DNA of 64,000 nt, from assembly GCA_964187785.1 (NCBI GenBank), contig OZ076409.1:45448001-45512000 (forward strand). Reading direction: 5' to 3'. Position 1 is the stretch's first letter. Every line of letters starts with the position of its first letter. Made by a program: the position numbers and the translations under genes. This DNA is from Amphiscolops sp. MND2022. Lineage: Eukaryota. This document shows positions 37,364-64,000 of the stretch, piece by piece. The notes below the pieces were generated by a model. The model saw only the letters and a list, made by a program, of their open reading frames with translations, did not search any database and was not told the DNA's origin.

Positions 37364-38098
37364 ATGGGCAAGTCGTCTCCGAAGAAAGACTGGCGTCCAT
37401 TTGCAATCAAAAATCCGCGGCTCAGGGGAAAGTTTTTGTGCGGTTATAAAGATAGGAAGAAAACTAATTTGAGAGGATGTATAGCTTGTAATTTGGATAT
37501 TCGGTGCAAAAACGGAGTCACGTCACCCTTATTGCGTCATGTTGATACCTGTGTTGGATCAAGTCCCGTTATGGAAGAGGATCAATCATTGTTAAAGTTT
37601 CTTTCTGGAAAGAGCAGAAAATATAATCTAGCACAGCGTCTAGTTTACAATTCCAATTTTTCTGTTAACAAGATTTGCACTTCCAAAAAGTTTTTGGAAA
37701 TATTTAAGTTGGCGAAGCTTGGAATTCCAACATACTCTGAATTACAGGAAAGTCTTACAAGCTCATACCTTGAAAGAATTGAGTCTGTATCCAATTTGCT
37801 GGCTGCAAATGATCCGCTCGTTTTGTGTTTGGACAAGTGGACTAACCACCACGACGAAAAATTCATCGGAGTATATGTTCTTCAAAAGCGAAAGAAGATA
37901 TTTTTAGGTCTTGAGAATTATGATTCAAAATGCACTGCTACTTATATGAAAGATCGCATAATCGAAATTCTGCAGAAATTTGGCATTGGAAATTTTGACC
38001 GATTCGTTTGCGTTATGTCAGACTGCGGGTCAGACGTTGTACACTGTATGAACACTGCCGCGCCAAAGGTGCTAACTCCAATTGTAATTGACAATTAA
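37364..38098 (+). CDS. Truncated hAT transposase (BED finger + first catalytic motifs)
   Basis: DWRPF...CIAC...SPLLRHVDTC (BED-like), LCLDKWT and VMSDCGSDV. The C-terminal catalytic and dimerisation regions are missing. Confidence 0.8.
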   Translation: MGKSSPKKDWRPFAIKNPRLRGKFLCGYKDRKKTNLRGCIACNLDIRCKNGVTSPLLRHVDTCVGSSPVMEEDQSLLKFLSGKSRKYNLAQRLVYNSNFSVNKICTSKKFLEIFKLAKLGIPTYSELQESLTSSYLERIESVSNLLAANDPLVLCLDKWTNHHDEKFIGVYVLQKRKKIFLGLENYDSKCTATYMKDRIIEILQKFGIGNFDRFVCVMSDCGSDVVHCMNTAAPKVLTPIVIDN

Positions 38099-38306
38099 AA
38101 CCATGTGCCATGTGCCATTCCTTTTTTTTGTTAATACATTTGTTGAAATTCCATATTTTTTGTTAAACGTTTTTGGTAAAACATTTGTAAAACATTTTTC
38201 GTTAAAACAATGTGTTTTATGCAAGTTACAAGAGGTGTTCGTTCATTATTCATAACAGTTTGTTACGTGTTTGCCTAAATTTCAAACTATTCAACAATTT
38301 TCAAAC

Positions 38307-38814
38307 GGAGTGTACGCCTTTGATCTAAATGCCGCGGGTCTAATGGAATTAGATCTAACTTTAAGATCTAACTTTCAGATCTAATTTTATCTAAAACACT
38401 TAGGTCTAACCCTTTCATGATCTAATATGTGTTCTGAAAGCGAAAATATAATGTGGGGCATATGCGATGTATGCACGCTCGCCCTCACCGTGGCAAAGAC
38501 CAGCTCCCACTACTACGATCGCCTCGCGATCTCCGTTCCCGCTAGGTCTTTGCTCCTGTTCGGCCTCGCTTAGCAAGTTGGGAATATAAGCGGCCCCAAG
38601 GGGCCGCGGGGCACTAGAGGAAATGGGGACATATCCGAGGCACGTTTTTTACTTTATATCATTTTTTAGTTTTTGATCCTAATTGACTTATTTTTTCCCA
38701 AATTAGATCATATTAGAAGAGATTTTTAGACCTGATTATTTATATCAATTTATTTAAATCTCGGTTTTGCCCCCTCTCTTAGATCTATTTAATTAGACCT
38801 GATTCCACGTAGCT
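38307..38814. mobile_element. MITE family D (9-bp TSD, AGATCTAA/GGTCTAA subterminal repeats) nested in the hAT
   Basis: TSD TTTTCAAAC at 38298-38306 and 38815-38823. Carries the shared core in reverse orientation (~38452-38650). Its right end matches a solo end at 5264-5306. Confidence 0.75.
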
Positions 38815-39217
38815 TTTTCAAACTACCAAACTCAAACTCTAAAATCAAATCAAACTCAAACTCAAACTATTTGGGTTCAAACTTTCAAACTTCAAACCAG
38901 GTTGCTTCAAACGTTTGAAAACCCTGGGTGAGGCTGTGATCAGCTAAGTAGATGGCGTCGTCTGGGAAGCTGCTGGGCCCAAAACCTTTCGAAACAGGTT
39001 GGGTAGGAATGAAGAAATGAATTGAGATTGATTAGTTATGATCAGACTTGGTTTATGTATTTACAATTGCAATTGATGGTAGAAGTGGTTCAGCATCGGG
39101 TATATATAGCACCGCGACGGGTTCCTGTCAGTCAACAAAAAATGTGCGGTATCAAGAGTTGTATGTTGTATCGCACAAACAGGTACATCAATGTGCGACA
39201 TGAAAAGTTGTGTGTAC

Positions 39218-39568
39218 GGAGTGGCTGTAGATAGGTCGATTTTTTCTGGTCGAAAGGACAAAGGTCGAACCTTTTGATCGAATTGCAGGGATCGAATGGA
39301 ATGCGGTCGAATTTTATCGTATTTGTTGTATGGCTCGGTCGCTTCGCTCCCTTCGCCAAGTAGCAACATTGAGGCATGGCCAAATGGCACGTCGCTCCGC
39401 TTCGCTTCGCTCCTGCATTCAGGGCACTAGGGGTATGTGAACATATCTGACTACGTCATAAAAATTTCGATCCGAGTTGTTTCGATCCCATTCAAAAAAT
39501 TTGGTATGTCGACCTGAGGACTAACTCTGATTTTCGATCCCGTTCCTTCGACCTACTTCCGCCCACCC
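39218..39568. mobile_element. Complete MITE family A copy in the Copia 5' LTR
   Basis: Near-identical to MITE A at 2826/3778. TSD GTGTGTAC / GTGTGTGC (8-9 bp); the empty site is present in the other LTR. Confidence 0.9.
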
Positions 39569-39976
39569 GTGTGTGCGATGTCATCTGGCAGGTACTTGAA
39601 ACTTAGGGGTCGTGGCTCATCATTTGATCGTTCCCGCCTTGCGAGGCGGATGGCAAACCTTGACATTGGCTTAAAGTCATTTGGCTTAAAACAATTGGTC
39701 ACTTGGCTTAATTTTTTAAGGCTAAGTGTCTCGGGTATTGGTCACTTGGCGTAAAGTCATTTGACTTAAAACCACTTAGCTGTGAACACGTGGCAGATTT
39801 TGTCGAATTTATCTTTATAACGTAGCGTATTATTATAACATGTCATATCAAGACTCCTCGGATATGTCCCCATTTCATCTAGTGCCCTGCGGCCCCTTGG
39901 GGCCGCTTATATTCCCATCTTGCTAAGCGAGGTCGAACAGGAGCAAATGGTATTAAGCCAAGTGACTGGTAACCCG

Positions 39977-40325
39977 GAAAAGGACATATAAGCGGAATAA
40001 GACCTAAAAATCGGAACAACACCTAAAAAAGTGGAAATAAGACCTAAAAACGAGAATAGGACCTGAATGCGGAATGAGACCCAAGCGGAGAACGGAATAG
40101 TCTTTGAAGGAACAATATCTGAAGTTTTCTTTAATATAAAACGTGCCTGTGATATTTCCACATTTTATCTAGTGCCCCGCAACACTTTGGGGCCGCTTAT
40201 GTACCCATCTTGTTAAGCGAGGTCGAACAGGAGGAAAGACCTAGCGGGAACGGAGATCGCGAAGCCATCGTAATGGGAGCTGGTCTTTGCGACGGTGAGG
40301 GCGAGCGTGCATACACTGGATATGT
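39977..40325 (+). mobile_element. Fragment of a MITE B-related element with the complete shared core
   Basis: 40050-40325 is homologous to 4290-4565. Confidence 0.75.
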
Positions 40326-40839
40326 AATATTAGAGGACGTTTCGGCGACAAAGACGTTTCGGCGACACTTCGTCTGTATATATATCGCCGAAACGTCTGT
40401 CACCGAAACGTCCAGAATCCGTTTCTTTTTGTTACTGGTCTACTGGGATAGTGGTTGGTATGGGGTCCCTACTTTCGTTGCGGACCACGGGTGTGTCTTC
40501 TCCCCCCAACATGATAATACACATGGCACTTGATTGATGACGAAGATCCATGATATCTGAGAGGAAAAAATTTTGACATGTGTTTTAACATGCATCACCG
40601 GGTATGCACTTGTTTGTGGGAATAGTTCAATTGTGTCGAAATTCTTTATCTTCTTGTGATTGAAGGTTGGGGTGATGTCACGCTGTAAACTCGCAGAGCT
40701 TATATTGTCAGTAATGACTCCACATCGATAACTAGGAGAAACTTCAATTGCGGAACTAATTTTTAGAAAACGTCGGACCTTCCACGTCTACCTTCTTGAA
40801 AAACCTCTGTAAAAAATTGTGCGTGTGCAATCAAGAAAA

Positions 40840-40955
40840 TAGAGCTGGGTCGTTTTTCAGGCAGAGACTTTCTCTCGCAATCCAGGTAAGCAATGCGGCC
40901 AGTGTAGTTGGAACGGTTCGGGACGGAGACCACTTAAGCGAACTTTACTACTTTT
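40840..40955 (+). mobile_element. 3' tip of a CRE-like retroposon
   Basis: Translates RAGSFFRQRLSLAIQVSNAASVVGTV. Confidence 0.6.
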
Positions 40956-41239
40956 AATGTTTTAATGTCCGTTTTGTTTCATTAAGAAATATATGTCTTC
41001 TTTGCTTCGTAATCGTTACCACTTCACATGCCTCTTTGAGTTTCTGAATTGAGATTTCTCCTGGGTCCATTGAACTCTCTGGTTGCATGGTCCTTTCCTT
41101 ATTTTCTTTTATGTTTCCTATGTTGGTTGAATTTTTTGTCTGCCGCCCGGGCTGGGGGCACATGATGAATATAGAAGCGTTTTTTAAGAAACGCTGAATG
41201 ATGACGACGATCCAATTCTGATTGAGGTATTTTTAGAAA

Positions 41240-41308
41240 GCTGGGCGATGAAATTCAACCTCCTCGCATGGTGCCTAGTGGACGTCTCTGACGACAAAAA
41301 GAATTTCA
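41240..41308 (+). ncRNA. HDV-like self-cleaving ribozyme (predicted)
   Basis: P1 GCTGGGC/GCCTAGT (G1-U wobble); P2 TGAAATTC/GAATTTCA; P3 ACC/GGT; L3 TCCTCGCAT; P1.1 CC/GG; P4 CGTC/GACG; J4/2 with C at 41295. G1 is the first base after the TSD. Confidence 0.82.
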
Positions 41309-41622
41309 GGCTGGGGGGCACATACCAGGTACTAACTGGAAGAGCCTCTCCGGAACAGAGGGTAGCTGGATTAGCCGACCAGTCCACCTCTTCAAAAAGA
41401 AAACAGGCGAACCGATCGGCAACGTTTGTCAACCGAAGACATCAGAGGGTTTACAAATGTTCTGCTCTGGAAACAGACATTGAAAGCAATCCAGGGCCGG
41501 GACACACGAGCTGTAGAAGGAAACAACGAAGAGAAATAAAGAGAGAGAAGCGAAAGATTTCCTTAAAAAACCAACTAGAGGGAACAGAGATAAAAATAGC
41601 CACCTGGAATCCTTCTCGATGA
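41248..41622 (+). CDS. RTE 5' ORF with a 2A/StopGo motif and the first strand of the APE domain
   Basis: DIESNPGP at 41476-41499, then a basic linker and KIATWN. The deletion junction is at ~41611. Confidence 0.7.
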   Translation: MKFNLLAWCLVDVSDDKKNFRLGGTYQVLTGRASPEQRVAGLADQSTSSKRKQANRSATFVNRRHQRVYKCSALETDIESNPGPGHTSCRRKQRREIKREKRKISLKNQLEGTEIKIATWNPSR

Positions 41623-43316
41623 GAACCAGGCAGGTTTCAGGGCTGACCGCTCTACCGCAGACGCCACACAGATTTTCGTCAGAATAAATGAGGACATCAA
41701 ACAGTATCAAAGGTCGAGAAATGTCACAGACAACGCAGAAGCCATCTTACTGGACCTGAGGAAGGCATACCCTCGAGTAAACAAGCCGATCCTCTGGGCC
41801 CTGCTGAGAAGATACTCACTGCCACAGAAAATAATAAATAAACTAATGGACCTCCACGAGCACACGAGCTACAAGGTCAAAGGTGCGGAGGGTATGAGTA
41901 CAGCATTCTACCCAGAAAGAGGATTGAGGGAAGGGTGTGCTACCTCACCCGCACTTTTCAACATATATCACCAAGCAGCTATTCGCATAGCAGAGAGCAA
42001 GCGGGAGGAAGCTGCCAGGGAAAATGGAAAACAATGCGGGATCAGATGGTCGTATTTACCAGGAAACAGATTCCCTCCACAACGCAGAGGTCAACAAAAC
42101 TCGGATGCAAGCCAAAAAATTTTCACGCTCTCTCTCTTCGCTGATGATACAACAGTAATCGGTCACAACGATGAAGTAGAAGAGGGAAAGAGGATAGTGG
42201 AAAGATGTCTCCTCGAGTTTGAAGAACAAACGAACTTAGACAAAGAGGAGAAAATGGTTTTTGGCGACGAGAAGAACAACACAGAAATTCGAATGCTTGG
42301 AACGTGGATGGAGAACAATAATGACACAACGAAACGCATCCAAAGGGCGGGAAAGAACTGGGCTACCATCAAAAGGAGGTTCCTGAAATGTCGTCTGACC
42401 AAGCGAACACAGGCCAAAGTAGTGGAAGCCTGCATAGAGAGCACAATGCTCTTCAATGCATCGGTTCGCCCGTTCAAGCTGAAAGAGATCAAAAGGATGC
42501 AAACTTCCATGGACAAGAGATATAGATACATCTGGAGCGATAAGAATGGCCAACCTCTACGCCAGATGGAAGAGAAACACTTAAATATGGCGGACATCAG
42601 AGAACAACTGAATGTAACATCTCTCAGAACGAAGATAGATAAAGCTCACCTCCTAAGAATGGGCCACGTTCTGAGAATGAACGATGACAGGTTGGTGAAA
42701 CAGGCAGTGCTAGGATGGTACAGCAAACTAGAAGAAGAGAATAAGACGAAAAAACTCCCACACAGGAAACACCATAACATACTGGCGCAAACTTATCAAT
42801 GAAGCCGGCGAGGATCCCAAAAATATTGAACACCTGATAACCGATCGAACCAAGTGGAGAGCGCTCGTACGGAACAGAGTAAAACACCTCGAAGAATATG
42901 AGAGACAGCAAGGCCACAACCACGTAATCCAACCCGATGAAATCATCAGAGACAGAAGGGAATCGACGAAAACACCAACCGAAAACACCCTTCAATGCGA
43001 GATTTGTGACAAAGTGTGCAGAAGCAAAGCAGGCCTAGCTATACACAGGAAAAGGCTTCACGACTCGCAACAAAAAGAGACTCAATGCGAGAAATGCGGC
43101 AAGACTTTCACACAAGAAGCCACACTGAAGAACCACATGAAAAAGTGCCTCGAAACATCACAAACACTTGCCTTCAGCTCGAAAATATGTCCCGAAGAAA
43201 GGAGTCTGCCTGAGATGCGATTCCCTGATAGCGCTTACAAACATGTCAAGACACCAAGCAACGAACAAATGCAAAACCCTCAGTTTACTGAAGAAGACAA
43301 ACGGAACCGATACTGA
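41612..43316 (+). pseudogene. RTE reverse transcriptase + zinc fingers, frameshifted near 42760 and ~43160
   Basis: Open RT frame 41612-42802; CEICDKVCRSKAGLAIHRKRLH and CEKCGKTFTQEATLKNHMKKC follow downstream. Confidence 0.85.
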
Positions 43317-44029
43317 TGCCGCAAGGCGATAAAACAGAAGAAGAAGTATTTTTAGAAAATATTCCAATCTTCGAAACTTGTGCTGAAACAAATATTTTCA
43401 GATCACATGACGACTGGAGATACGCAGTTTGATTTGACGGGAACTGATAGTCCTAGGAATGTAGAGAACGAATTATCACAAACGTTAGCGGGTTTTGCTT
43501 CTGTACAAGAAAGTGCAAGCTCTGGTGCTAATCAAGGAATGGCTTCTAAGGGCGAGATGTCTTCCAGTTCAAGCAGATTAACAGAAGGCGAATCCGTGAG
43601 TGATTTGATTGATTATTTTAATCAGGAATACCAAGAAATAAATTCTGACCAAATGAGAGCAAACAAGGAATGAAAAGTTATGGGTTCAAAACAAAATCTC
43701 GGAAAAATTTGGGATGATGTCATAAGTTAGCCAATTTTCGAAGAAATCTTTTCTCTTAGAATGCTGTTGGTCAATGAAATGTTTCTATGGACGAATAACA
43801 TTGATGCCCATAATAGTAAAAACGAGGATCAATGTTTTAAACTCCATTGTGAACCTTTTCGTATTTACATGCATCTTCAAACTGTGAACATATGAAAAAG
43901 TTGAAGTCTCGTGATTTAAAATGGCTCAAACCGTAGTCTCATTACACTTGCGATAAGTGCGATCTCGTTTCAGCCGGCAAGTCTAATTTGTTGCGATAAA
44001 AGATGCTTGCTTTTCAACCATGAGGTTTC

Positions 44030-44640
44030 GTGTTCTGAGACATTCCAAAGCAGAAGGGTCCCTTTTATAGTTTTTTTCGGCACTATGAGACTTCGCCCCC
44101 CCCCTTTCGGCTTTGTGAGGCTTTTTTTCGAACGCTTTTTAATGTCCGAAAAGGGTCCCCTTCATTTTTTGAGCTTTCGCTACAGAATGGATGGTGAAAA
44201 ATCGCAACTGTCTTCCCTTCTACAGTTTTCGACATTGCGAGATATTTTAAATTAACATTTTTTGTCTTGCAATAAATTCGTCTTGAAAGATCGGCGTTTT
44301 TTATACGCGACTATTTTTCTAATTTGTTTTCATCGAAGCCCCCTCTCAATATTTACTAGAAACGAAACGTTTTGCGAGCATAAAGGACTCCTTAAGGGTT
44401 TTCGGCACTATGCGACTTACCGGTGACCTTCAAAAAAATTAGAAAAAAGTTTTTTTTGAAACATTTTCGGTTCAGAAAGATGTTTTTTGCTGTTTCCAGT
44501 TGGGAGGAATGGTTTTCGAGTCTAATGTGTATCCCTTCGGGTATTTTTTGCCGCTGTAAAATTGATGAAATTTTAGTAATAGCGTCATTTTGCATATTTA
44601 AAAAACTTTTGTTGAACCTTGAGACGGGCGCCGACTTCAA
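44030..44640 (+). mobile_element. HINE-like element (degenerate)
   Basis: Reverse complements of the internal repeats (GGGTCCCCTT, TTTTCGGCACTATG) and the subTIR GGCGCCGACT at ~44627. Confidence 0.6.
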
Positions 44641-45068
44641 ATTGAGTCAAGTAGTAGAAAAATTGTCCGACTTAATCCTTGGTTCTCTGTATGATATTGC
44701 TCATTTGGTTTTCTCTTCAAAAGTTCGCAACTTTCTTCGCAAGTGTTTGCGAAGCACGGCTTCGCCTCTGTGTAACAAGGGTCACAAAGTGTTGAAAATT
44801 TTTTTGGAGTGTTGCGATAGCATAACGTTAACTGGCCGAAATGATCGGAAAAAAGGAAATCTTTTTCTAATAGAACAGATAATAACTTTCTGGATGATTT
44901 CCTTGATTTATAAAGTTACTTGCTATATTAGTTCAAACTAATATAGCAAGTTTCGATTTTCTGGATGGTCCAATTTCCTGGTTATAATTGTTACCAAATT
45001 TTCTAGTGTCGGTTGTACGCACCCCCTGGGGGTCTAAATTTCCAGTTTGGTTAAAGCAGGTAAATGGA

Positions 45069-47346
45069 ATGGTGAAACCTAAGCCACCTTCAACCCTGCA
45101 CCCATTAGGACTGAGTAATACGTTCCTGCCAAACCACGAGAATGCTCTTGCTGCCAGTTCCGGCAATAGTTTGACTGACTCAGAAAATCGGTCGGCGCAA
45201 GAAGGCGACGCTGATGTGTGGCTTGATGACACTGCAGGCGCAACTTCATGGAACGGTACCGCGGATGCCACTTCTAGTCGAAGCGGAAGTGTTCCCGTCG
45301 ATCAAGCTGGCATGCCCATCTACAGTAACGGAGTTCATACCGAAGACCCAGCAACAGTTGTTCCAAATTATTTCGAGAGTCTTGCTTTCAGTCCTGATTA
45401 CAACTCCAGTGGAGCCTTTTCGCCCATAGACTTCAACCCCCAATCGGCACCATATCTCTCACCACAACAAGCAGCAGCGGCTGCCGCAGCTGTTGGTTTC
45501 TCTCCATTCTACAATATATCTCCCGACTACCCTTCTTGGGCACAGGGTCCAGGCACATTTGATTTCGCTCCCACGCTCACTTCGCCTGTCGATACAAACG
45601 CCAGTTTAAAATTGCTCGAGCAGAATTTTACCAACTTGTCGTTGTTCGCTCCTGCTGCAGCTGGCTCGCCATTACATGCAATCGATTTCGCAAACTACCA
45701 GGCGTTATTTCCTACCGGTAAAAACAAGTCCTATGCGAAGATTTCCGGTCAGCCGACAGCCATTGGCAGTTCTAGTAGAAACTTCCAGAAGCCTAGGCAA
45801 CAAAGATGGAACAATGGAGTGAGCTCCAATACCTTCGGTGGTCAACCTTCTTCGCATCACCGACAGAACCCGAACTCGTACTATCACCGACCACAGCACC
45901 CGCAAACTATGCCGGATATTGGTGAGTTCTTTATCTTTACGTATATTTCCTGAAAGTCATTCAGCAGACGGTAACAATGAAAGCGCCTTTTCTTAAGTAC
46001 GCTTTTCCTCGAGTTTCAAAAATAGAAACATTAGTGCTTTTTGGGAAAAAGTTCGATCTTGAGAGCTCGAAATGATTTTGTACATTAACATTACGTTTGT
46101 AAGCACAATGAGATGCTTTTGGCAGTCTTATTAAATACCCAGAAGTCATAAATGGTTTTAGCTAAAACAAAGATGAATGCTTATTATTTTCAAATCTGTG
46201 TGGAATGTCACGTTATTTGATCATAGAAAACGCTATTTGAGATACCTAATTGACGAATGTTTAGGCACCTGGGGCTACAATGAAGACTTTTCTGCTGCTA
46301 ACAAGACTATGACTAGATCTGGAAAAATCGTGCCGACTCCGAGTGAAAAGGAAAATGAAGTTTTGAGAAAACTGAAGCAAAACAACAATTATAACCCCGT
46401 AGACTTCAACTGCAGTCCGAAAGAAGCCAAGTTTTTCGTAATAAAAAGCTATAGCGAAGATGACATTCATCGCTCGATAAAGTACAAAATTTGGTGTTCT
46501 ACCGAACGGGGTAATCGGAAGCTGAATGAATGTTATGGAAGATTCCACAACAAGGGACCCATTTATCTCATGTTTAGTGTTAATGGGTCCGGACATTTTT
46601 GTGGAGTTGCTGAGATGAAATCTTTTGTCGACCTCGAAACTCAGCAAAAAGTGTGGTCTCAGAGTAAGTGGAAAGGTTCTTTTGACGTGGAATGGATTTT
46701 TGTAAAAGACGTTCCTAACTCGCAATTAAGGCACATTAGGCTGGAAAACAATGAGAACAAGCCGGTTACCAACTCACGAGACACACAAGAAATTCCATTC
46801 GAAAAGGGAAAATTGATACTCAAGGTGTTCCACAAGTATGAACACGAGACGAGTTTGTTCGACGATTTCTCGCACTATGAGAGCAGAGAGCTGGAAGCAA
46901 ATGCTGGAACGGCTGCTGGAGAAGGTGATTTGCAAAACACTCTTGGATGCAGTGCCGTAGGACTAGATAACACCTTGGTTGCATACCAACCGCTAAGCAA
47001 TGCCGCTGTTCCTGGGTCGAATGGAGAAGCCAATGCGCTGGGAGATGAAGGCACTGAAAGTAGCACTGTTTGCATAACTGGTCAAGTCAGCAACTCACTT
47101 CTCGTTCCTGCCGCCCCGCATGTCGCTGAAGGAGCTTCAGATACCAATGGTGCCATCGCCGTTGCCCCAACTTCTAATAGAGACAATATTAATCCCTCTT
47201 CGGCAACTGAGAACAGCAGAACTTTGACAAACACTTCAAATTGTTCACAGCTGAATTCCTCATCTTTCGATAACAGTTGCCCTGCGCCCCCATCTCTGAT
47301 GTCACAATCAACCAACGTGCCGTCAATAGAGTCGGTGGCGCCTTAA
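45069..47346 (+). CDS. YTHDF: YTH-domain family (YTHDF-type) m6A reader, ~644 aa; exons 45069-45921 and 46265-47346
   Basis: YTH domain [24 protein letters not shown]...[15 protein letters not shown]...VWSQSKWKG...[34 protein letters not shown] low-complexity N-terminus. Phase-1 intron GTGAGT...TTTAG. The start codon is uncertain. Confidence 0.92.
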
Positions 47347-49224
47347 TTTCCTGCCCTTTTTATTTTCCGATGTTGCATTTTTTTGTTTCGGTGCAACCAA
47401 GTCAGTTGTTTGATGCAATTGGGCTCAAATGATTGTTTGCAAATCTTTCATCACTGCTTATAGTGTTGGTTGTATGAACTCATCAATTGCGTCAAACTGA
47501 CTCTCCAATATCAGTGCGTTCTCAGTTCTTATATACTAGATAATCCACCAGAAGTGGTACCAGCTTTCAAAGCTTGTTTTACATATTACATAATTGCCGC
47601 AATGCTACCAAAATCCAGCTAATGTCCAAAGCTTTGGATCCGTACATGCTTCATTTTTTTGTGACCAAAAGAATAAAGATTTACCAAAAAACGTGTGATT
47701 AGATTTTTAGCTTCATTAGCTTGCGACAATTAAGCACAGTATTTCACAGCGAGACCTTTAATTTCCATGTTCTATAGCTATTCACTGATAACACGAGCAT
47801 CCACAACCATGGTCCAAGTAGACCATTCAAAGGAACTAAGAGTATAAAATAGCTTTTGTAAACTGTATATACTACATAAATGGGAATTGCAATTGCTGTT
47901 GTCATTTATAATTTTGTCGCAATAGCATTCTGTAAAAATATTGTTGAAAGAAGAGAAAACGTTCCCTTGTCCCAATGTATTAAGGAACATCTCAGATGCA
48001 TTTCTCTTCCTTACCCTGTTCAGTGCTTCTGGAGGAGCTTTCAGAGCAACTCTGGTCTCCCTACTTTTCTTTTGTGGAAAACTAATCAAACTCGATGAAC
48101 GGATAACTGCATGGACACAAAACGCACTTCTGGTGTGATTGTTTTTAATATTTCTGCTTTAGCAGGAATGTTATTGTAACCTCAAAGTTGGTCCTTTTTT
48201 TTTCAGTCGTCAAATTTCGTCCTACTGAATAATTCAGATATTTTGTTCGGCAGTGAGTGTAAGCGTGGGAAAGCTGCCGACAACAATTCAATTCTAGTGC
48301 GATAGAACGAGCGAGTGGTAATTATCCATTCGTATGCTGACGTCATTGAGATGAAGCGAATGAGTGTTAATTATTCGTTCGTTGAGAGCTTCGCCTGCAT
48401 TCAAATGCGAATGCGAAACTTCGTCTACGCTTAGTTATATTTTCTTTAGTCCGAGAAGAATTAAAGGCGGTGTAAACTTGTACAGTGATTAATTGTGCTC
48501 TAAGTAATGATTAAACAGGAGTGTATTGGTATTCCAGATATGATTCTTTTATTAATGATTTTTTGTTTTAAAAAAATAAAGATTAAAGCAGAAATAGTAC
48601 TGAGCCCCGGAGGGGCCTATTTTACTGAAGTTGTTTCTAACCTGTTTTTATTGAGAGTTTTGTTTCCACGGCGGTTCTGTTCCAGTCAGTCATTTATTTT
48701 TATGCTTTACAAAGTATATTTTCATACCAAACTAATTGATGAAAATACCCATTATTGCTTTTATTCAACCTTCTTGTACTACACGTTATAACATCACTTA
48801 TATTTGTTTACTAAAAGCTAACTATTCGAATCATTTCCTCATTTGCCACTTTCCACATTTCAAAAAATTCCCCTTTTCCCAGCCTTATCGGCTCTCTTAA
48901 ACTAATCTTGCTTTTTGATCATTGGGACTTATTTTGGCTCTTTTTTCTGTTTTCTCCCCCACCATCAAAATTACAAAAGTTATCAAAAGCTGAAATTTTC
49001 AAAAGTTTCTCAAACTGACTTAATTAAAATTGGAATATTTTTCTATTAAATGAAATTTAATTTCCATTTAAATAGTTTTTGGTTTGAACAAAACGTTTTC
49101 ACACATTATACATTAACTGTTTTTTTGTGACTGTTGATTTCCTAATCACGACTTCATAAGGGTAATTACTGTGAAAAACGTTTATATCTGGATCCTAAAC
49201 TATCACCCTGAAAATAAATTTTAG

Positions 49225-52200
49225 GTTTTTGGTTCGATTATAAATCTTTCCACTAATTTTCAAGAAAAATATGGGGACAGAAAAAAACCCTTATTTTAAG
49301 TGCCTTGGAAAGATTTGTGTTCCAGCTGAGTGATTTTTAGCTGAAAGGGGATAACGAGTGAATATACGATCAGCAGTTTGTCGTCCTTTGGGTAGTGGAG
49401 TCTTTTTTCCAGGGGAAGGGTGACCGGGTCTTTTGTTACTCAGCATTGTGGGGCGGCGGCGGTGAGCGAAGGAAGGGAGCAGTTATTGAAATAATGCATT
49501 CACCATTTATTCATTCTGAATAGATAATTACATTTTCAATATATTTTCAAATATTATGTTGATGGATCATTTGAGTTTCAATGATAAATACATTCTTCCT
49601 GTCCAGAATGGCACTTGTGCTGTGAGTGCAAACTTCAATCGGAATGCTAGTTGGATCATCATGACTCCAGAAGAACATTGGCTAAAACTTTCTTTTTCTT
49701 CCGCAATATTTTGGCGATATATGTGCTGTGCATTAGTAAAATAAGCCTTCGAAGCCAAAAAACGGGTTTGTCGGGGGTTTTTGGTTTCGTTTAAAAACGA
49801 CGTATCGTAATAGTAACAGAGTTTTCTTCAGTACCGCCTAAAAGTTTAATTTAATAGTCCTACATGAATGCAATCCATGCTGAAGCAGCGATAATTCGAA
49901 TAGAACCGTTCGAAAGACGAGAGTTTGTTCCATAACTTGACGGAAGTTTTTGTTCATTATATTTTAATTTAGCGTTCGCTGTGATTAGCAAAAGTGATTA
50001 AAAACAACTCGCCAAAAATTCAGATGAGTGACTGACTGTTTTTTAAAGAGGATAACATTTTTTGTATATATACAAAAAACAGGCTTCTTTAAAATTTTTT
50101 CAAACATTATGCGTCCAAACTCTGGAATGACGACTGAAACCGATGAAGATACGCCTAAACACTGGAATAACAGCTGAAACCAATGCGTGCAGTACAATTA
50201 GGTCTTTTTTTACCAAATTTAAGTAAGTTTAGGCGTTATTCCACCACTATAGTGATTTGATCAGAATAACGACTAAAATTTTAAAAAAGGTCCCAACTCT
50301 GGAATAACGACTAAATTCAATGTAGATACGTCTAAACACTGGAATAACGGCAAAAATCAGTGCGTACAGTACAATTAGGCCTTGTTTTATCAAACTAAAG
50401 TGACGTTAGGTGTTAATCTACCACTTTAGTGGTTTTATCAGCATGAAGACTAAAATTAAAGAAAAAAGGTCCAAACACTGGAATAACGGCTAAAATCAAT
50501 TCGTACAGTATAATTAAGCCTTGGTTTGCCTACCTTTAGGTGTTATTCCACCATTCAAGTGGTTTTTCCAAAACAAGGACTAAAATTTAAGAAAAAATGT
50601 CCAAACTCTGGAATAACAACTAAAATCGATGAGGATACGTCTAAACACCGGAAAACAGCTAAAATCAATGCGTACAGTAGAATTAGGCCTTAGTTATTCC
50701 ATTTAGAGTGATTTTAGGCGTTATTCTACCACTACTGTAATTTATCAGAATAAGGACTAAATTTAAAGAAAAAAGGTCCAAACTCTGGAATGACGACAAA
50801 AATCAATGAAGATACGTCTAAACACTGGAATAACGGCAAACATCAAAGCTTACAGTACAATCAGGCCTTGTTTTACCAAATTAAATTGATTTTAGGTGTT
50901 ATTCCGCCACTGAAAAGATTTTTCCAGAACAAGGACTAACATTTAAGAAAAAATGTCCAAACTCTGGAATAACAACTAAAATCAATGAGGATACGTCTAA
51001 ACACCGGAAAACCGCTAAAATCAATGCGTACATTAGAATTAGGCTTAAGTTTATCACATTAAAGCGATTTTAGGCGATTCGACCACAATAGAGATATTAT
51101 CAGAATAAGGACTGAAATTAAAGAAAAAAAGGTTCAAACTCTGGAATGACAACAAAAATCGATGAAGATACGTCAAAACACGGGAAAAACAGCTAACATC
51201 AATGCGTACAGTAGAATTAGGCCTTAGTTTATCCAATTAAAGTGATTTTAGGCGTTTTTCTACCACTACAGTGATTTATCAGAATAAGGACAGTTTTTGG
51301 TTCGATTATAAATCTTTCCACTAATTTTCAAGAAAAATATGGGGACAGAAAAAAACCCTTATTTTAAGTGCCTTGGAAAGATTTGTGTTCCAGCTGAGTG
51401 ATTTTTAGCTGAAAGGGGATAACGAGTGAATATACGATCAGCAGTTTGTCGTCCTTTGGGTAGTGGAGTCTTTTTTCCAGGGGAAGGGTGACCGGGTCTT
51501 TTGTTACTCAGCATTGTGGGGCGGCGGCGGTGAGCGAAGGAAGGGAGCAGTTATTGAAATAATGCATTCACCATTTATTCATTCTGAATAGATAATTACA
51601 TTTTCAATATATTTTCAAATATTATGTTGATGGATCATTTGAGTTTCAATGATAAATACATTCTTCCTGTCCAGAATGGCACTTGTGCTGTGAGTGCAAA
51701 CTTCAATCGGAATGCTAGTTGGATCATCATGACTCCAGAAGAACATTGGCTAAAACTTTCTTTTTCTTCCGCAATATTTTGGCGATATATGTGCTATGCA
51801 TTAGTAAAATAAGCCTTCGAAGCCAAAAAACGGGTTTGTCGGGGGTTTTTGGTTTCGTTTAAAAACGACGTATCGTAATAGTAACAGAGTTTTCTTCAGT
51901 ACCGCCTAAAAGTTTAATTTAATAGTCCTACATGAATGCAATCCATGCTGAAGCAGCGATAATTCGAATAGAACCGTTCGAAAGACGAGAGTTTGTTCCA
52001 TAACTTGACGGAAGTTTTTGTTCATTATATTTTAATTTAGCGTTCGCTGTGATTAGCAAAAGTGATTAAAAACAACTCGCCAAAAATTCAGATGAGTGAC
52101 TGACTGTTTTTTAAAGAGGATAATATTTTTTGTATATATACAAAAAACAGGCTTCTTTAAAATTTTTTCAAACATTATGCGTCCAAACTCTGGAATGACG

Positions 52201-53360
52201 ACTGAAACCGATGAAGATACGCCTAAACACTGGAATAACAGCTGAAACCAATGCGTGCAGTACAATTAGGTCTTTTTTTTACCAAATTTAAGTAAGTTTA
52301 GGCGTTATTCCACCACTATAGTGATTTGATCAGAATAACGACTAAAATTTTAAAAAAGGTCCCAACTCTGGAATAACGACTAAATTCAATGTAGATACGT
52401 CTAAACACTGGAATAACGGCAAAAATCAGTGCGTACAGTACAATTAGGCCTTGTTTCATCAAACTAAAGTGACGTTAGGTGTTAATCTACCACTTTAGTG
52501 ATTTTATCAGCATGAAGACTAAAATTAAAGAAAAAAGGTCCAAACACTGGAATAACGGCTAAAATCAATTCGTACAGTATAATTAAGCCTTGGTTTGCCT
52601 ACCTTTAGGTGTTATTCCACCATTCAAGTGGTTTTTCCAAAACAAGGACTAAAATTTAAGAAAAAATGTCCAAACTCTGGAATAACAACTAAAATCGATG
52701 AGGATACGTCTAAACACCGGAAAACAGCTAAAATCAATGCGTACAGTAGAATTAGGCCTTAGTTATTCCATTTAGAGTGATTTTAGGCGTTATTCTACCA
52801 CTACTGTAATTTATCAGAATAAGGACTAAATTTAAAGAAAAAAGGTCCAAACTCTGGAATGACGACAAAAATCAATGAAGATACGTCTAAACACTGGAAT
52901 AACGGCAAACATCAAAGCTTACAGTACAATCAGGCCTTGTTTTACCAAATTAAATTGATTTTAGGTGTTATTCCGCCACTGAAAAGATTTTTCCAGAACA
53001 AGGACTAACATTTAAGAAAAAATGTCCAAACTCTGGAATAACAACTAAAATCAATGAGGATACGTCTAAACACCGGAAAACCGCTAAAATCAATGCGTAC
53101 ATTAGAATTAGGCTTAAGTTTATCACATTAAAGCGATTTTAGGCGATTCGACCACAATAGAGATATTATCAGAATAAGGACTGAAATTAAAGAAAAAAAG
53201 GTTCAAACTCTGGAATGACAACAAAAATCGATGAAGATACGTCAAAACACGGGAAAAACAGCTAACATCAATGCGTACAGTAGAATTAGGCCTTAGTTTA
53301 TCCAATTAAAGTGATTTTAGGCGTTTTTCTACCACTACAGTGATTTATCAGAATAAGGAC
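49225..53360. repeat. 2068-bp tandem duplication spanning the unique/satellite boundary
   Basis: 49225-51291 recurs at 51293-53360 (ORF pairs 49556/51624 and 49985/52053), almost identical. Confidence 0.95.
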
Positions 53361-56300
53361 TAAATTTAAAGAAAAAAGGTCCAAACTCTGGAATGACGAC
53401 AAAAGTCAATGAAGATACGTCTAAACACTGGAATAACGGCAAACATCTAAGCTTACAGTACAATCAGGCCTTGTTTTACCAAATTAAATTGATTTTAGGT
53501 GTTATTCCGCCACTGAAAAGATTTTTCCAGAACAAGGACTAACATTTAAGAAAAAATGTCCAAACTCTGGAATAATAACTAAAATCAATGAGGATACGTC
53601 TAAACACCGGAAAACCGCTAAAATCAATGCGTACATTAGAATTAGGCTTAAGTTTATCACATTAAAGCGATTTTAGGCGATTCGACCACAAAAGAGATAT
53701 TATCAGAATAAGGACTGAAATTAAAGAAAAAAAGGTTCAAACTCTGGAATGACAACAAAAATCGATGAAGATACGTCAAAACACGGGAAAAACAGCTAAC
53801 ATCAATGCGTACAGTAGAATTAGGCCTTAGTTTATCCAATTAAAGTGATTTTAGGCGTTTTTCTACCACTACAGTGATTTATCAGAATAAGGACTAAATT
53901 TAAAGAAAAAAGGTCCAAACTCTGGAATTACGACAAAAGTCAATGAAGATACGTCTAAACACTGGAATAACGGCAAACATCTAAGCTTACAGTACAATCA
54001 GGCCTTGTTTTACCAAATTAAATTGATTTTAGGTGTTATTCCGCCACTGAAAAGATTTTTCCAGAACAAGGACTAACATTTAAGAAAAATTGTCCAAACT
54101 CTGGAATAACAATTAAAATCAATGAGGATACGTCTAAACACCTGAAAACCGCTAACATCAATGCGTACAATAGAATTAGGCCTAAGTTTATCACACTAAA
54201 GCGATTTCAGGCGATTCGACCACAATAGAGATATTATCAGAATAAGGACTGAAATTAAAGAAAAAAAGGTCCAAACTCTGGAATGACAACAAAAATCGAT
54301 GAAGATACGTCTAAACACCGGAAAAACAGCTAACATCAATGCGTACAGTAAAAGCTGAAACCAATGCGTGCAGTACAATTAGGTCTTTTTTTACCAAATT
54401 TAAGTAAGTTTAGGCGTTATTCCACCACTATAGTGATTTGATCAGAATAACGACTAAAATTTTTAAAAAAGGTCCCAACTCTGGAATAACGACTAAATTC
54501 AATGTAGATACGTCTAAAGACTGGAATAACGGCAAAAATCAGTGCGTACAGTACAATTAGGCCTTGTTTTATCAAACTAAAGTGACGTTAGGTGTTAATC
54601 TACCACTTTAGTGATTTTATCAGCATGAAGACTAAAATTAAAGAAAAAAGGTCCAAACACTGGAATAACGGCTAAAATCAATTCGTACAGTATAATTAAG
54701 CCTTGGTTTGCCTACCTTTAGGTGTTATTCCACCATTCAAGTGGTTTTTCCAAAACAAGGACTAAAATTTAAGAAAAAATGTCCAAACTCTAGAATAACA
54801 ACTAAAATCGATGAGGATACGCCTAAACACCGGAAAACAGCTAAAATCAATGCGTACAGTAGAATTAGGCCTTAGTTATTTCAATTAGAGTGATTTTAGG
54901 CGTTATTCTACCACTACTGTAATTTATTAGAATAAGGACTAAATTTAAAGAAAAAAGGTCCAAACTCTGGAATGACGACAAAAATCAATGAAGATACGTC
55001 TAAACACTGGAATAACGGCAAACATCAAAGCTTACAGTACAATCAGGCCTTGTTTTACCAAATTAAATTGATTTTAGGTGTTATTCCGCCACTGAAAAGA
55101 TTTTTCCAGAACAAGGACTAACATTTAAGAAAAATTGTCCAAACTCTGGAATAACAATTAAAATCAATGAGGATACGTCTAAACACCTGAAAACCGCTAA
55201 CATCAATGCGTACAATAGAATTAGGCCTAAGTTTATCACATTAAAGCGATTTCAGGCGATTCGACCACAATAGAGATATTATCAGAATAAGGACTGAAAT
55301 TAAAGAAAAAAAGGTTCAAACTCTGGAATAACAACTAAAATCAATGAGGATACGTCTAAACACCGGAAAACCGCTAAAATCAATGCGTACATTAGAATTA
55401 GGCTTAAGTTTATCACATTAAAGCGATTTTAGGCGATTCGACCACAATAGAGATATTATCAGAATAAGGACTGAAATTAAAGAAAAAAAGGTTCAAACTC
55501 TGGAATGACAACAAAAATCGATGAAGATACGTCAAAACACGGGAAAAACAGCTAACATCAATGCGTACAGTAGAATTAGGCCTTAGTTTATCCAAATAAA
55601 GTGATTTTAGGCGTTTTTCTACCACTACAGTGATTTATCAGAATAAGGACTAAATTTAAAGAAAAAAGGTCCAAACTCTGGAATGACGACAAAAGTCAAT
55701 GAAGATACGTCTAAACACTGGAATAACGGCAAACATCTAAGCTTACAGTACAATCAGGCCTTGTTTTACCAAATTAAATTGATTTAAGGTGTTATTCCGC
55801 CACTGAAAAGATTTTTCCAGAACAAGGACTAACATTTAAGAAAAATTGTCCAAACTCTGGAATAACAATTAAAATCAATGAGGATACGTCTAAACACCTG
55901 AAAACCGCTAACATCAATGCGTACAATAGAATTAGGCCTAAGTTTATCACATTAAAGCGATTTCAGGCGATTCGACCACAATAGAGATATTATCAGAATA
56001 AGGACTGAAATTAAAGAAAAAAAGGTCCAAACTCTGGAATGACAACAAAAATCGATGAAGATACGTCTAAACACCGGAAAAACAGCTAACATCAATGTGT
56101 ACAGTAAAAGTAGGCCTCGACCAACTTAAAGTATTTTTAGGTGTTGTTCCACCACTGAAGTGATTTTTCCAAAACGAGGACTAAAGTTCAAGAAAAAAGG
56201 TCCAATCTCTGGAATAACAACTAAAATCGATGAGGATACGTCCAAACACGGGAAAACAGCTGAAATCAATGCGTACAGTAGAATTAGGCCTTAGTTTATC

Positions 56301-59300
56301 CAATTAAAGTCATATAAGGCGTTATTCTACCACAACAGTGGTTTATCAGAATAAGGACTAAAAGAAAAGAAAAAAGGTCCAAACTATGGAATGACGACAA
56401 AAATCGATGAAGATACGTCTAAACACCGGAAAACCGCTAAAATCAATGCGTACATTAGAATTAGGCCTAAGTTTATCACATTAAAGCAATTTTAGGCGAC
56501 TCGACCACTTTAGAGATATTATCAGAATAAGGACTGAATTTAAAGAAAAAAGGTTCAAACTCTGGAATGACAACAAAAATCGATGAAGATACGTCAAAAC
56601 ACCGGAAAAACAGCTAACATCAATGCGTACAGTAAAAGTAGGCCTTGACCAACTTAAAGTATTTTTAGGTGTTATTCCTCCACCGAAGTGATTTTTCCAA
56701 AACGAGGACTAAAGTTTAAGAAAAAAGGTCCAAATTCTGGAATAACAACTAAAATAGATGAGGATACGTCTAAACACCGCAAAACCGCTAAAATCAATGC
56801 GTACAATAGAATTTGGCCGAAATTTATCACATTAAAGCGATTTTAGGCGACTCGACCACTGTAGGGATTTTATCGGAGCTGGGACTAAAATTAAAGAAAA
56901 AAGGTCCAAACGCTGGAATGACGACAAAAATCGATGAAGATACGTCTAAACACGGATAACGGCTAACATCAATGCTTACAGTACGATAAGGCCTTGTTTT
57001 ACCAAATTGAAGTGATTTTAGGTGTTATTCCACCACTGAAGTTGTAATTCCAAAACAAGGACCAAAATTAAAGAAAAAAGGTTCAAACTCTGGAATATCA
57101 ACTAAAATCGATGAGGATACGTCTAAACACCGGAAAACAGCTAAAATTAATGCGTACAGTAGAATTAGGCCTTAGTTATTCCAATTAGAGTGATTTTAGG
57201 CGTTATTCTACCACTACTGTACTTTATCAGAATAAGGACTAAATTTAAAGAAAAAAGGTCCAAACTCTGGAATGACGACAAAAATCAATGAAGATACGTC
57301 TAAACACTGGAATAACGGCAAACATCAAAGCTTACAGTACTACAATCAGGCCTTGTTTTACCAAATTAAATTGATTTTAGGTGTTATTCCGCCACTGAAA
57401 AGATTTTTCCAGAACAAGGACTAACATTTAAGAAAAAATGTCCAAACTCTGGAATAACAACTAAAATCAATGAGGATACGTCTAAACACCGGAAAACCGC
57501 TAAAATCAATGCGTACATTGGAATTAGGCTTAAGTTTATCACATTAAAGTGATTTTAGGCGATTCGACCACAATAGAGATATTATCAGAATAAGGACTGA
57601 AATTAAAGAAAAAAAGGTTCAAACTCTGGAATGACAACAAAAATCGATGAAGACACGTCAAAACACGGGAATAACGGCAAACATCTAAGCTTACAGTACA
57701 ATCAGGCCTTGTTTTACCAAATTAAATTGATTTTAGGTGTTATTCCGCCACTGAAAAGATTTTTCCAGAACAAGGACTAACATTTAAGAAAAATTGTCCA
57801 AACTCTGGAATAACAATTAAAATCAATGAGGATACGTCTAAACACCTGAAAACCGCTAACATCAATGCGTACAATAGAATTAGGCCTAAGTTTATCACAT
57901 TAAAGCGATTTCAGGCGATTCGACCACAATAGAGATATTATCAGAATAAGGACTGAAATTAAAGGAAAAAAGGTCCAAACTCTGGAATGACAACAAAAAT
58001 CGATGAAGATACGTCTAAACACCGGAAAAACAGCTAACATCAATGCGTACAGTAAAAGTAGGCCTTGACCAACTTAAAGTATCTTTAGGTGTTGTTCCAC
58101 CACTGAAGTGATTTTTCCAAAACGAGGACTAAAGTTCAAGAAAAAAGGTCCAATCTCTGGAATAACAACTAAAATCGATGAGGATATGTCTAAACACGGG
58201 AAAACAGCTAAAATCAATGCGTACAGTAGAATTAGGCCTTAGTTTATCCAATTAATGTCATATAAGGCGTTATTCTACCACAACAGTGGTTTATCAGAAT
58301 AAGGACTAAAAGAAAAGAAAAAAGGTCCAAACTATGGAATGACAACAAAAATCGATGAAGATACGTCTAAACACCGGAAAACCGCTAAAATCAATGCGTA
58401 CATTAGAATTAGGCCTAAGTTTATCACATTAAAGCAATTTTAGGCGACTCGACCACTTTAAAGATATTATCAGAATAAGGACTGAATTTAAAGAAAAAAG
58501 GTTCAAACTCTGGAATGACAACAAAAATCGATGAAGATACGTCAAAACACCGGAAAAACAGCTAACATCAATGCGTACAGTAAAAGTAGGCCTTGACCAA
58601 CCTAAAGTATTTTTAGGTGTTATTCCTCCACCGAAGTGATTTTTCCAAAACGAGGACTAAAGTTTAAGAAAAAAGGTCCAAATTCTGGAATAACAACTAA
58701 AATAGATGAGGATACGTCTAAACACCGGAAAACCGCTAAAATCAATGCGTACAACAGAATTTGGCTGAAGTTTATCACATTAAAGCGATTTTAGGCGACT
58801 CGACCACTGTAGGGATTTTATCGGAGCTGGGACTAAAATTAAAGAAAAAAAGGTCCAAACGCAGGAATGACGACAAAAATCGATGAAGATACGTCTAAAC
58901 ACGGATAACGGCTAACATCAATGCTTACAGTACACTAAGGCCTTGTTTTACCAAATTGAAGTGATTTTAGGTGTTATTCCACCACTGAAGTTGTATTTCC
59001 AAAACAAGGACCAAAATTAAAGAAAAAAAGTTCAAACTCTGGAATATCAACTAAAATCGATGAGGATACGTCTAAACACCGGAAAACAGCTAAAATCAAT
59101 GCGTACAGTAGAATTAGGCCTTAGTTGTTCCAATTAGAGTGATTTTAGGCGTTATTCTACCACTACTGTACTTTATCAGAATAAGGACTAAATTTAAAGA
59201 AAAAGGTCCAAACTCTGGAATGACGACAAAAATCAATGAAGATACGTCTAAACACTGGAATAACGGCAAACATCAAAGCTTACAGTACTACAATCAGGCC

Positions 59301-62300: not shown

Positions 62301-64000
62301 GAACTAGGCCTTAGTTTATCCAATTAAAGTCATATAAGGCGTTATTCTACCACAACAGTGGTTTATCAGAATAAGGACTAAAAGAAAAGAAAAAAAGTCC
62401 AAACTATGGAATGACGACAAAAATCGATGAAGATACGTCTAAACACCGGAAAACCGCTAAAATCAATGCGTACATTAGAATTAGGCCTAAGTTTATCACA
62501 TTAAAGCAATTTTAGGCGACTCGACGACTATAGAGATATTATCAGAATAAGGACTGAATTTAAAGAAAAAAGGTTCAAACTCTGGAATGACAACAAAAAT
62601 CGATGAAGATACGTCAAAACACCGGAAAAACAGCTAACATCAATGCGTACAGTAAAAGTAGGCCTTGACCAACTTAAAGTATTTTTAGGTGTTATTCCTC
62701 CACCGAAGTGATTTTTCCAAAACGAGGACTAAAGTTTAAGAAAAAAGGTCCAAATTCTGGAATAACAACTAAAATAGATGAGGATACGTCTAAACACGGG
62801 AAAACAGCTGAAATCAATGCGTACAGTAGAATTAGGCCTTAGTTTATCCAATTAAAGTCATATAAGGCGTTATTCTACCACAACAGTGGTTTATCAGAAT
62901 AAGGACTAAAAGAAAAGAAAAAAGGTCCAAACTATGGAATGACAACAAAAATCGATGAAGATACGTCTAAACACCGGAAAACCGCTAAAATCAATGCGTA
63001 CATTAGAATTAGGCCTAAGTTTATCACATTAAAGCAATTTTAGGCGACTCGACCACTTTAGAGATATTATCAGAATAAGGACTGAATTTAAAGAAAAAAG
63101 GTTCAAACTCTGGAATGACAACAAAAATCGATGAAGATACGTCAAAACACCGGAAAAACAGCTAACATCAATGCGTACAGTAAAAGTAGGCCTTGACCAA
63201 CTTAAAGTATTTTTAGGTGTTATTCCACCACTGAATTGAATTTTCCAAAACACGGACTAAAATTTCAGAAAAAAGGCCCGAACTCTGGAATAACAACTAA
63301 AATCGATGAGGATACGTCTAAACACCGGAAAACCGCTAAAATCAATGCGTACATTAGAATTTGGCCTTAGTTTATTACATTAAACAGTTTTAGGCGATTT
63401 CACCACTATAATGATTTTATCAGAATTAGGACTAAAAATAAAGGAAAAAGTTCCATACTAATGAATGACGACAAAAATCGATGAAGATACGTCTAAACAC
63501 GAATAGCGGCTAACTTCAATTTTTACAGTACAATAACGCCTTGTTTTACAAAATTAAAGTAATTTTAGGTGTTATACCACCACTGAAGTAATATTTCCGA
63601 AACAAGGACTAAAATTTAAGAAAAAAGGTCCAAATTCTGGAATAACAACTAAAATCGGCGAGGATACGTCTAAACACCGGAAAACAGCTAAAATCAATGC
63701 GTACAGTAGAATTAGGCCTTGTTTTATCAGATAAAAGTGATTTTAGGCGATTCCACCACAATAGTGATTTTATCAGAATAAGGACTAAAAGCAAAGAAAA
63801 AAGGTCCAAACTCTAGAATGACGACAAAAATCGATGAAGATACGTCTAAACACGAATAACGGCTAACATCAATGCTTACAGTACAATAAGGCCTTGTTTT
63901 ACCAAATTGAAGTGATTTTAGGTGTTATTCCACCACTGAAGTTGTATTTCCAAAACAAGGACCAAAATTAAAGAAAAAAGGTTTGAACTCTGGAATGACG
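50111..64000. repeat. ~178-bp tandem satellite array with higher-order structure (runs off the window)
   Basis: GTCCAAACTCTGGAAT recurs every ~177-179 bp, with trimer periodicities of 534 and 528 bp. Interrupted once by the duplicated unique block 51293-52178. Confidence 0.97.

Follow-up and report, generated by a model that had tools for sequence, protein, structure and literature searches.

How can an RNA that is predicted to cut itself free at its own 5′ end be translated, and what does a 2A/StopGo motif contribute when it lies just upstream of the endonuclease in the same open reading frame? These questions are raised by a retroelement in the window (the whole 64,000-nucleotide stretch of Amphiscolops sp. 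MND2022 DNA that was analyzed). A preliminary description proposed a coupled module, in which self-cleavage and non-canonical initiation are followed by ribosomal skipping that gives the EN-RT protein a defined N-terminus. The reading that we favor, and consider reasonably probable, is that the locus holds an internally deleted, single-ORF, RTE-related LINE whose ribozyme-released RNA would be entered by ribosomes near its 5′ end, and in which StopGo would free the EN-RT.

The element is 2.1 kb long and begins at position 41240, as set by identical 13-bp target-site duplications (TSDs; gtatttttagaaa) at 41227-41239 and 43346-43358. The second of these is preceded by a (GAA)3 tail at 43337-43345, and all features lie on the + strand. 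An ATG at 41248-41250 (nucleotide 9 of the element, after an 8-nt leader) opens a frame of 76 stop-free codons (41248-41475) that continues into the 2A/StopGo core DIESNPGP (41476-41499), where the predicted skip falls between Gly (41494-41496) and Pro (41497-41499). The core is followed by an Arg/Lys-rich linker (41500-41595), which is the predicted N-terminus once skipping has occurred; most relatives likewise have basic residues directly after the motif. The APE domain starts with IATWN at 41596-41610, and 32 codons separate this sequence from DIESNPGP. The ATG, its frame and the position of the core about 30 codons before the APE domain are therefore as they were first described.

What had not been recognized is that the window copy is internally deleted. 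Relative to the full-length copy L024, it is without reference nucleotides 363-2050 (1,688 nt), which interrupts the APE domain at 41610/41611 and leaves the RT in a frame other than that of IATWN. Because of this 1.69-kb deletion, the ORF stops at 41622 and EN-RT cannot be made. The RT and thumb remnant (41612-42802) does not share the frame of the leader ORF, and the C-terminal C2H2 zinc-finger region (approximate bounds 42996-43320) is in a frame different from that of the RT remnant; these regions match RVT_1 and zf-C2H2 in the full-length copy. The window copy is dead, and near-intact family copies exist. Elsewhere in the window, a gene for a YTH-domain protein (PF04146, E 2.5e-49) is located at 45069-47346, 1.7 kb downstream of the element, with a probable low-complexity exon upstream. 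An AT skew of 0.19-0.27 is sustained over 12 kb at 52001-64000, perhaps reflecting a tandem array.

The 1.07-Gb genome contains at least 19 matches to the 5′ 400 nt of the element. Four full-length copies (L020, L022, L023 and L024) are about 98% identical, whereas identity is about 80% in an older set; judging by the former value, the window's family (family A) was recently active. In L024, a single ORF runs from the nt-9 ATG to the C-terminal zinc fingers. The L020 protein carries APE and RT in one ORF, with Pfam matches to Exo_endo_phos_2 (27 bits, cut-off 27.4), RVT_1 (75 bits) and zf-C2H2 and none to RNase H at E up to 0.01, and the best PDB match of the element protein is LINE-1 ORF2p. 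TSDs of 13-16 bp and a (GAA)n tail are present in 10 of the 11 copies displayed, and the eleventh lies in a GAT repeat. With APE and RT in one ORF, TSDs, a simple-repeat tail and no LTR, the element has the characteristics of an APE-type non-LTR retrotransposon.

RTE elements possess a single ORF without an ORF1 and end in a short tandem-repeat tail. Both features occur in the lineage, with the exception of locus L168, which has a fused esterase-like domain. In a quick IQ-TREE analysis of 79 RT domains (midpoint root, no labelled references, long-branch warnings, with 11 short loci and most homologous proteins left out), family A falls within a 46-sequence clade (SH-aLRT 98) that sits on a long branch, apart from CR1-like and from classic RTE-like sequences. 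The nearest outside matches of an APE search are RTE-like as labelled by eye (E about 1e-6). The RTE label itself was assigned by eye against the RTclass1 entries in the Odon supplement, and from motifs typical of the clade. RTEX, Proto2 and Ingi were set aside because their RT motifs differ, by eye, from those of the lineage in the entries compared. The lineage is best described as RTE-related and as a candidate member of the RTE clade. Classic RTE-like loci of the same genome differ from it: they fall outside the lineage in the tree, and among 30 loci retrieved with a classic RTE-like query, many of them 5′-truncated, none has a PGP motif or a strict ribozyme match.

The only named relative among the 120 matches listed of 197 is a Branchiostoma belcheri hypothetical protein. 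ESM Atlas matches are exclusively unnamed APE-RT clusters, and cluster names are otherwise "hypothetical protein". Of 22 metagenome loci, 6 carry an NPGP motif, another 5 are copies or fragments of one family (L104), and the rest are truncated or distant. In the tree, the sister of the lineage is a GC-rich LINE on a small contig (L162, G000:C1525). It shares the KAYPRV and LREGC motifs without a PGP motif, and may come from another organism.

The predicted HDV-like self-cleaving ribozyme occupies nucleotides 1-69 of the element (41240-41308). P1 pairs 41240-41246 with 41273-41279, P2 pairs 41249-41256 with 41301-41308, and P3 pairs 41258-41260 with 41270-41272 around L3 (41261-41269). A GG at 41280-41281 is followed by a short P4, and the candidate catalytic C is at 41295. 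The A of the nt-9 ATG lies in J1/2 and its TG forms the first two bases of P2, which bears out the earlier observation that this codon overlaps P2. A hand-written HDV descriptor, whose matches have the nested double pseudoknot of P1, P2, P3 and P1.1 and the G-U at the cleavage site, finds 26 matches in 610,134 bases (the window plus the loci), every one at an element 5′ end, and none in 256,000 shuffled bases. In a MAFFT alignment of 10 ribozyme 5′ ends, 92% of cells pair compared with 38-46% in slid controls, and double changes are found at 14 of 15 pairs, which was reached by 0 of 500 shuffles. Most of the aligned sequences were chosen by the descriptor, which itself demands pairing, and therefore the positions of the matches at TSD-defined ends are the more independent evidence. 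Covariation covers P1, P2 and P3; by inspection, P1.1 is GG/CC, or GC/GC in family E. T22, C24 and C56-AAA are invariant in alignment A2, consistent with the U-Y-C start of L3 and with a catalytic C followed by A in J4/2.

Family copies begin at G1 of the ribozyme with unrelated flanking sequences, which is indirectly consistent with the predicted self-cleavage 5′ of G1. An Rfam scan of positions 38000-48000 returned no ribozyme family and one chance-level microRNA match, behind which there is an inverted-repeat hairpin at 40336-40412. Minimum-energy folding, a method that cannot show pseudoknots, gives the leader a non-significant z of -1.23. Families E and F (L171, L172) have minimal HDV-like folds of about 50 nt that are without P4. 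A second conserved hairpin, with the loop ATTAGCCGA, is located at 41357-41391. Similar (T/C)AGCC(G/A)A-loop hairpins occur in family A, its older set, family B and loci L096, L097 and L100, and are not clearly present in C, D, E and F. This hairpin lies inside the part that deleted copies retain, and is a candidate cis-acting RNA element that might bind a protein or take part in initiation.

The order of ribozyme, 72-94 codons and motif is shared by five sister families of the same genome (B, C, D, E and F) and by metagenome families L097, L100, L101 and L104. The leader frame is stop-free from the first base of the ribozyme in 8 of 10 families. When the count is restricted to the part ahead of each first in-frame ATG, this has a P of about 3e-4 by shuffling, or 3e-3 with B and E dropped as related, in a post hoc test devised after the data were seen. 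By contrast, the first in-frame ATG varies from family to family. It is at nt 9 in A and L097, 51 in B, 53 in L100, 141 in C and 225 in F, where it is only 8 codons before the core. No in-frame ATG precedes the motif in L101, and D and E have no family-wide one. The nt-9 ATG is thus in frame only in the window's family and in one metagenome family, and these differences rule out a universal AUG at nt 9. The proposed coupled module is supported with respect to the conserved motif, the ribozyme fold at exact 5′ ends and a leader that looks disposable yet is open, but not with respect to the nt-9 ATG, which is not general.

Individual copies show a similar pattern. Among 12 loci of the window's family, the motif was detected in 10. 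From the nt-9 ATG onward, 7 of these have an open frame, one of them being L010, which is 83% identical and has a decayed core; two others have a stop and one has a 1-nt deletion. In family D, 4 of 5 motif-bearing copies are open without an in-frame Met, in family E 4 of 5 copies are open (3 without Met), and in family F all 7 are open. The single copy of L101 has a stop inside the ribozyme, in P4. Two copies with 1-nt indels (L005 and L222) are still open in the shifted frame, and so openness can arise by chance. For families D and E, an out-of-frame ATG combined with a frameshift is a possible alternative to non-AUG entry.

The leader does not evolve like a functional peptide. Between B and C, differences by codon position are 19/15/17 (dN/dS 0.9), and a third-position bias starts only in the last 20 codons (8/6/16); dN/dS is 0.11 for the APE domain. 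Between A and L097, where leader identity is 18%, the corresponding values are 23/22/25 for the leader and 9/7/14 for the last 20 codons. A functional leader peptide is therefore unsupported, as protein-level selection is not seen in these between-family comparisons, and the pattern indicates that the peptide is disposable whereas the frame and the 2A are not. A disposable leader whose frame is kept open is what a role in trimming the N-terminus predicts.

In the mechanism that we favor, read-through transcription would be followed by self-cleavage at G1 by the predicted ribozyme. Ribosomes would then load onto the uncapped RNA close to its 5′ end, in a cap-independent manner and with a flexible start codon, probably the nt-9 AUG in the window's family and perhaps a non-AUG codon in D and E. 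Skipping at PG/P would finally release a protein consisting of Pro, the basic linker, APE and RT, with a fixed N-terminus.

The last step depends on the motif. DIESNPGP is the sole D(V/I)ExNPGP sequence in all six frames of the window, with a chance expectation of 4e-5. The same pattern has 448 matches in the whole genome compared with none for a reversed control, and together these values rule out a chance origin. Of the first 30 genome matches, one belongs to the window's family; by eye, most of the others precede CR1/L2-like APE sequence and have an L-rich, Gly-ended context before the core. A search with residues 45-480 returned 83 close and 4 distant, RTE-like proteins; of these 87, 72 have NPGP but only 5 the strict consensus. 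This query contained the motif, and the search was therefore repeated with the RT region only. Among the 120 matches listed of 197, the APE start is detectable in 78 (42 are not assessable), and an NPGP-type motif is located upstream of it in 71 of the 78. The remaining 7 predicted proteins start 57 residues or fewer before APE. When both searches are pooled, the motif is present in 103 of 111 assessable proteins (of 157). Conservation across copies, which had been put forward as a check, is thus observed in the family as well as the lineage.

The commonest core across the lineage is T(I/V)HPNPGP, and 61 of the 103 fit T(I/V)H.N/HPGP (T.H). The others are T.E (14), S.H (12), D.E (9), G-type (6) and C.H (1). 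In the T/S class, p0 is usually Arg (78%), p6 Ile or Val (79%) and p10 Leu (83%). Between motif and APE there are 33-85 residues, apart from three proteins with 175-208; scans of two of these three found weak matches to C1 or zinc-finger domains. All synonymous codons at N, P, G and P are used among 17 motif instances with DNA. This rules out a DNA- or RNA-level motif that reads NPGP by accident, and argues that the motif is conserved as protein rather than as DNA. One metagenome family (L104/L106) has a decayed motif, DVNENPES, together with two leader stops and an ATG just before the remnant. Members of this family (L104-L108) are inserted in GAT repeats.

Viral StopGo sites are known to have either Thr at p12 or His at p14 as single variants; each is reportedly rare and keeps about 90% of activity in its viral context (PMC12846837), whereas most of the lineage carries both. 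A broader interpretation, which we offer only tentatively, is that the whole lineage translates through its own ribozyme, starting at the cleaved 5′ terminus and with no need for an AUG, and that an undescribed double-variant StopGo class, Lx-T(I/V)HPNPGP, makes the start site irrelevant. The window's family would then be a member with a D-type core and a nt-9 AUG.

A different role for the motif might be mainly that of a throttle, at which ribosomes stall or drop off and thereby lower EN-RT output, with N-terminal trimming being secondary. Such a role has been suggested for LINEs with a single ORF (PMC3894237), a review describes it for L1Tc (PMC5814959), and 59% of tested ORF2p-associated 2A-like peptides lowered protein abundance (bioRxiv 2026.06.17.732966). 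It also predicts the same pattern of motif conservation. We nevertheless regard it as unlikely to be the main function. An uncapped RNA would seemingly need little further damping, and a throttle alone does not account for the tandem motifs of L168 (2711-4654), where the order is 2A, esterase-like domain, 2A, 2A, Cys-rich finger, APE and RT. The esterase-like domain is GDSL-type (E 4e-6, below cut-off), all three 2As are canonical, and they bracket this domain as polyprotein separators would. L168 has frameshifts and no descriptor-matching ribozyme. A throttle and the release of EN-RT that we favor do not exclude one another.

For the window's family, the strength of skipping is a separate matter. 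The residues upstream of the core are YKCSALET, and the earlier remark that they lack a Leu-rich run is correct. Only the Leu at p9 is kept, as in the D-type subgroup, and the clade's usual R(p0), I/V(p6) and L(p10) are missing. The class A upstream context (Gly/His at p11 plus a hydrophobic run) is absent from the window motif, which has Thr at p11. In front of Asp, p11 is preferentially Gly (PMC12846837), and most p11 substitutions abolished P2A/F2A activity (bioRxiv 2026.09.24.754024). Because this mutagenesis disfavors Thr at p11, high activity is doubtful, and the doubt expressed in the preliminary description was fair. In human cells, 139 of 1,969 one-deviation motifs were highly active, as were 43 of 580 RT-associated contigs, with 56% of the latter in the mid-range (bioRxiv 2026.09.24.754024), and 28% of viral StopGo sites fit no upstream class (PMC12846837). 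Skipping in the window's family is probably partial.

The same features could mean that the motif of this family is a weak or inactive relic and that the nt-9 ATG yields a single full-length fusion protein. Thr at p11 and the missing hydrophobic run are consistent with this view, as is the inactivity of many LINE 2As with an intact core in reticulocyte lysate (PMC3708506), and a fixed ATG takes away the need for trimming. However, the window's family, L096 and L097 share 7 of the 8 core residues while differing by synonymous changes, compared with the low leader identity between A and L097, and the near-identical copies point to recent activity of the family. A relic therefore seems distinctly improbable.

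The insertion sites have a signature of their own. The host sequence GACGACGA is located at 41203-41210, and its first base is 37 nt ahead of the point where the element begins. Across insertion flanks from the window, L001-L019 and L173-L225, RACGA starts exactly at -37 in 31 of 63 (13/18 in A, 10/24 in B-C, 6/8 in F, 2/8 in D and 0/5 in E), compared with 0.22 per offset far upstream. Given 13-bp TSDs, this start is 24 nt from the first nick. In repeated host sequences, different families share the same or nearly the same insertion point (L003/L225, L001/L009/L202, L014/L205, L187/L209 and L002/L004/L223). At L020 (4034-5500 and upstream), a full-length copy is in frame inside a gag-like ORF with weak matches to DUF1759 and a zinc knuckle. 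Many copies are internally deleted (that of the window, L021, L025, L026, L028, L029, L031, L032 and L033), and they keep at least the first ~180 nt and the 3′ end. The share of such copies is biased because the search used the 5′ end. L033 is a minimal 199-nt element with its own TSD that can be likened to RIME/NARTc or SIDEs.

Translation that begins in host sequence on uncleaved, capped read-through RNA and passes in frame through the ribozyme, with the 2A freeing the enzyme from a host-derived N-terminus, would account for the ATG-less leaders, for the in-frame position of L020 and for a -37 target motif that shares the frame of the ORF in families A, B/C and F, but this is very unlikely, since flanks are open for at least 30 codons about as often in the ORF frame (24/63) as in the +1 frame (22/63), the +2 frame (8/63) is closed by the TGA of the target motif itself, the ATG-less families D and E show no in-frame bias, and an active ribozyme would remove the cap.

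RTE-clade LINEs with 5′ HDV-like ribozymes were reportedly described by Ruminski et al. in 2011. Such elements have the ribozyme at the precise 5′ junction and a single APE-RT ORF, both of which are also true of our lineage, and IRES-like initiation has been proposed for them (PMC6765202, PMC3774820). The closest known arrangement is that of L1Tc/Ingi of trypanosomes, with the Pr77 HDV-like ribozyme and L1Tc2A (PMC5814959, PMC3185411), and so the parallel drawn in the preliminary description is apt. L1Tc/Ingi and the lineage share a single ORF, an HDV-like ribozyme at nt 1, an in-frame 2A just upstream of APE, an upstream target consensus and short non-autonomous derivatives (PMC5814959, PMC3185411). 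Unlike Ingi, L020 has no RNase H match and its RT motifs are RTE-like by eye; the (GAA)n tail and the dominant T(I/V)HPNPGP are further differences from L1Tc/Ingi. The frame of the lineage runs through the ribozyme itself.

That some LINEs carry a 2A upstream of APE was also known, from six APE clades: Rex1, Crack, L2, L2A, CR1 and Ingi (Odon et al. 2013, PMC3708506). In those elements the ORF start and the 2A are 40-100 residues apart, and the 2A, which immediately precedes APE or a PHD finger, correlates with a single ORF, as in the lineage (PMC3708506). RTE is outside these six clades and the term does not occur in the main text, and the LREGC and KAYP motifs have no match in two of the supplementary files (PMC3708506). 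TIHP likewise has no match in two supplements of PMC12846837. HPNPGP occurs 67 times in the supplement of Rao (PMC12338488) and 25 times in that of Li (PMC12846837), and the rows viewed are GDVHPNPGP or DVHPNPGP; in literature full text, it was found in one mycovirus paper only. No report in the literature searched joins the RTE clade with ribosome skipping, or a ribozyme and a 2A for this lineage, with Repbase, subscription journals and bioRxiv supplements outside the scope of the search. Repbase or the bioRxiv supplements on RT-associated 2As could already hold members of the lineage. The pairing of ribozyme and 2A is itself known; what seems new is that an RTE-related lineage has the L1Tc-type layout, with a double-variant core as the common form and with leaders that look AUG-independent.

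Two questions are open in the literature: the way in which uncapped LINE RNAs released by a ribozyme are translated, and the purpose of LINE 2As (PMC3894237, PMC6765202). The lineage offers natural variants with an AUG at nt 9, an AUG in P4, no AUG, a decayed 2A with a closed leader, and a triple 2A. Because these variants are matched, both questions are testable in 300-nt constructs. The lineage also supplies about 90 natural T/S-type cores that are beyond the reach of single-mismatch viral searches.
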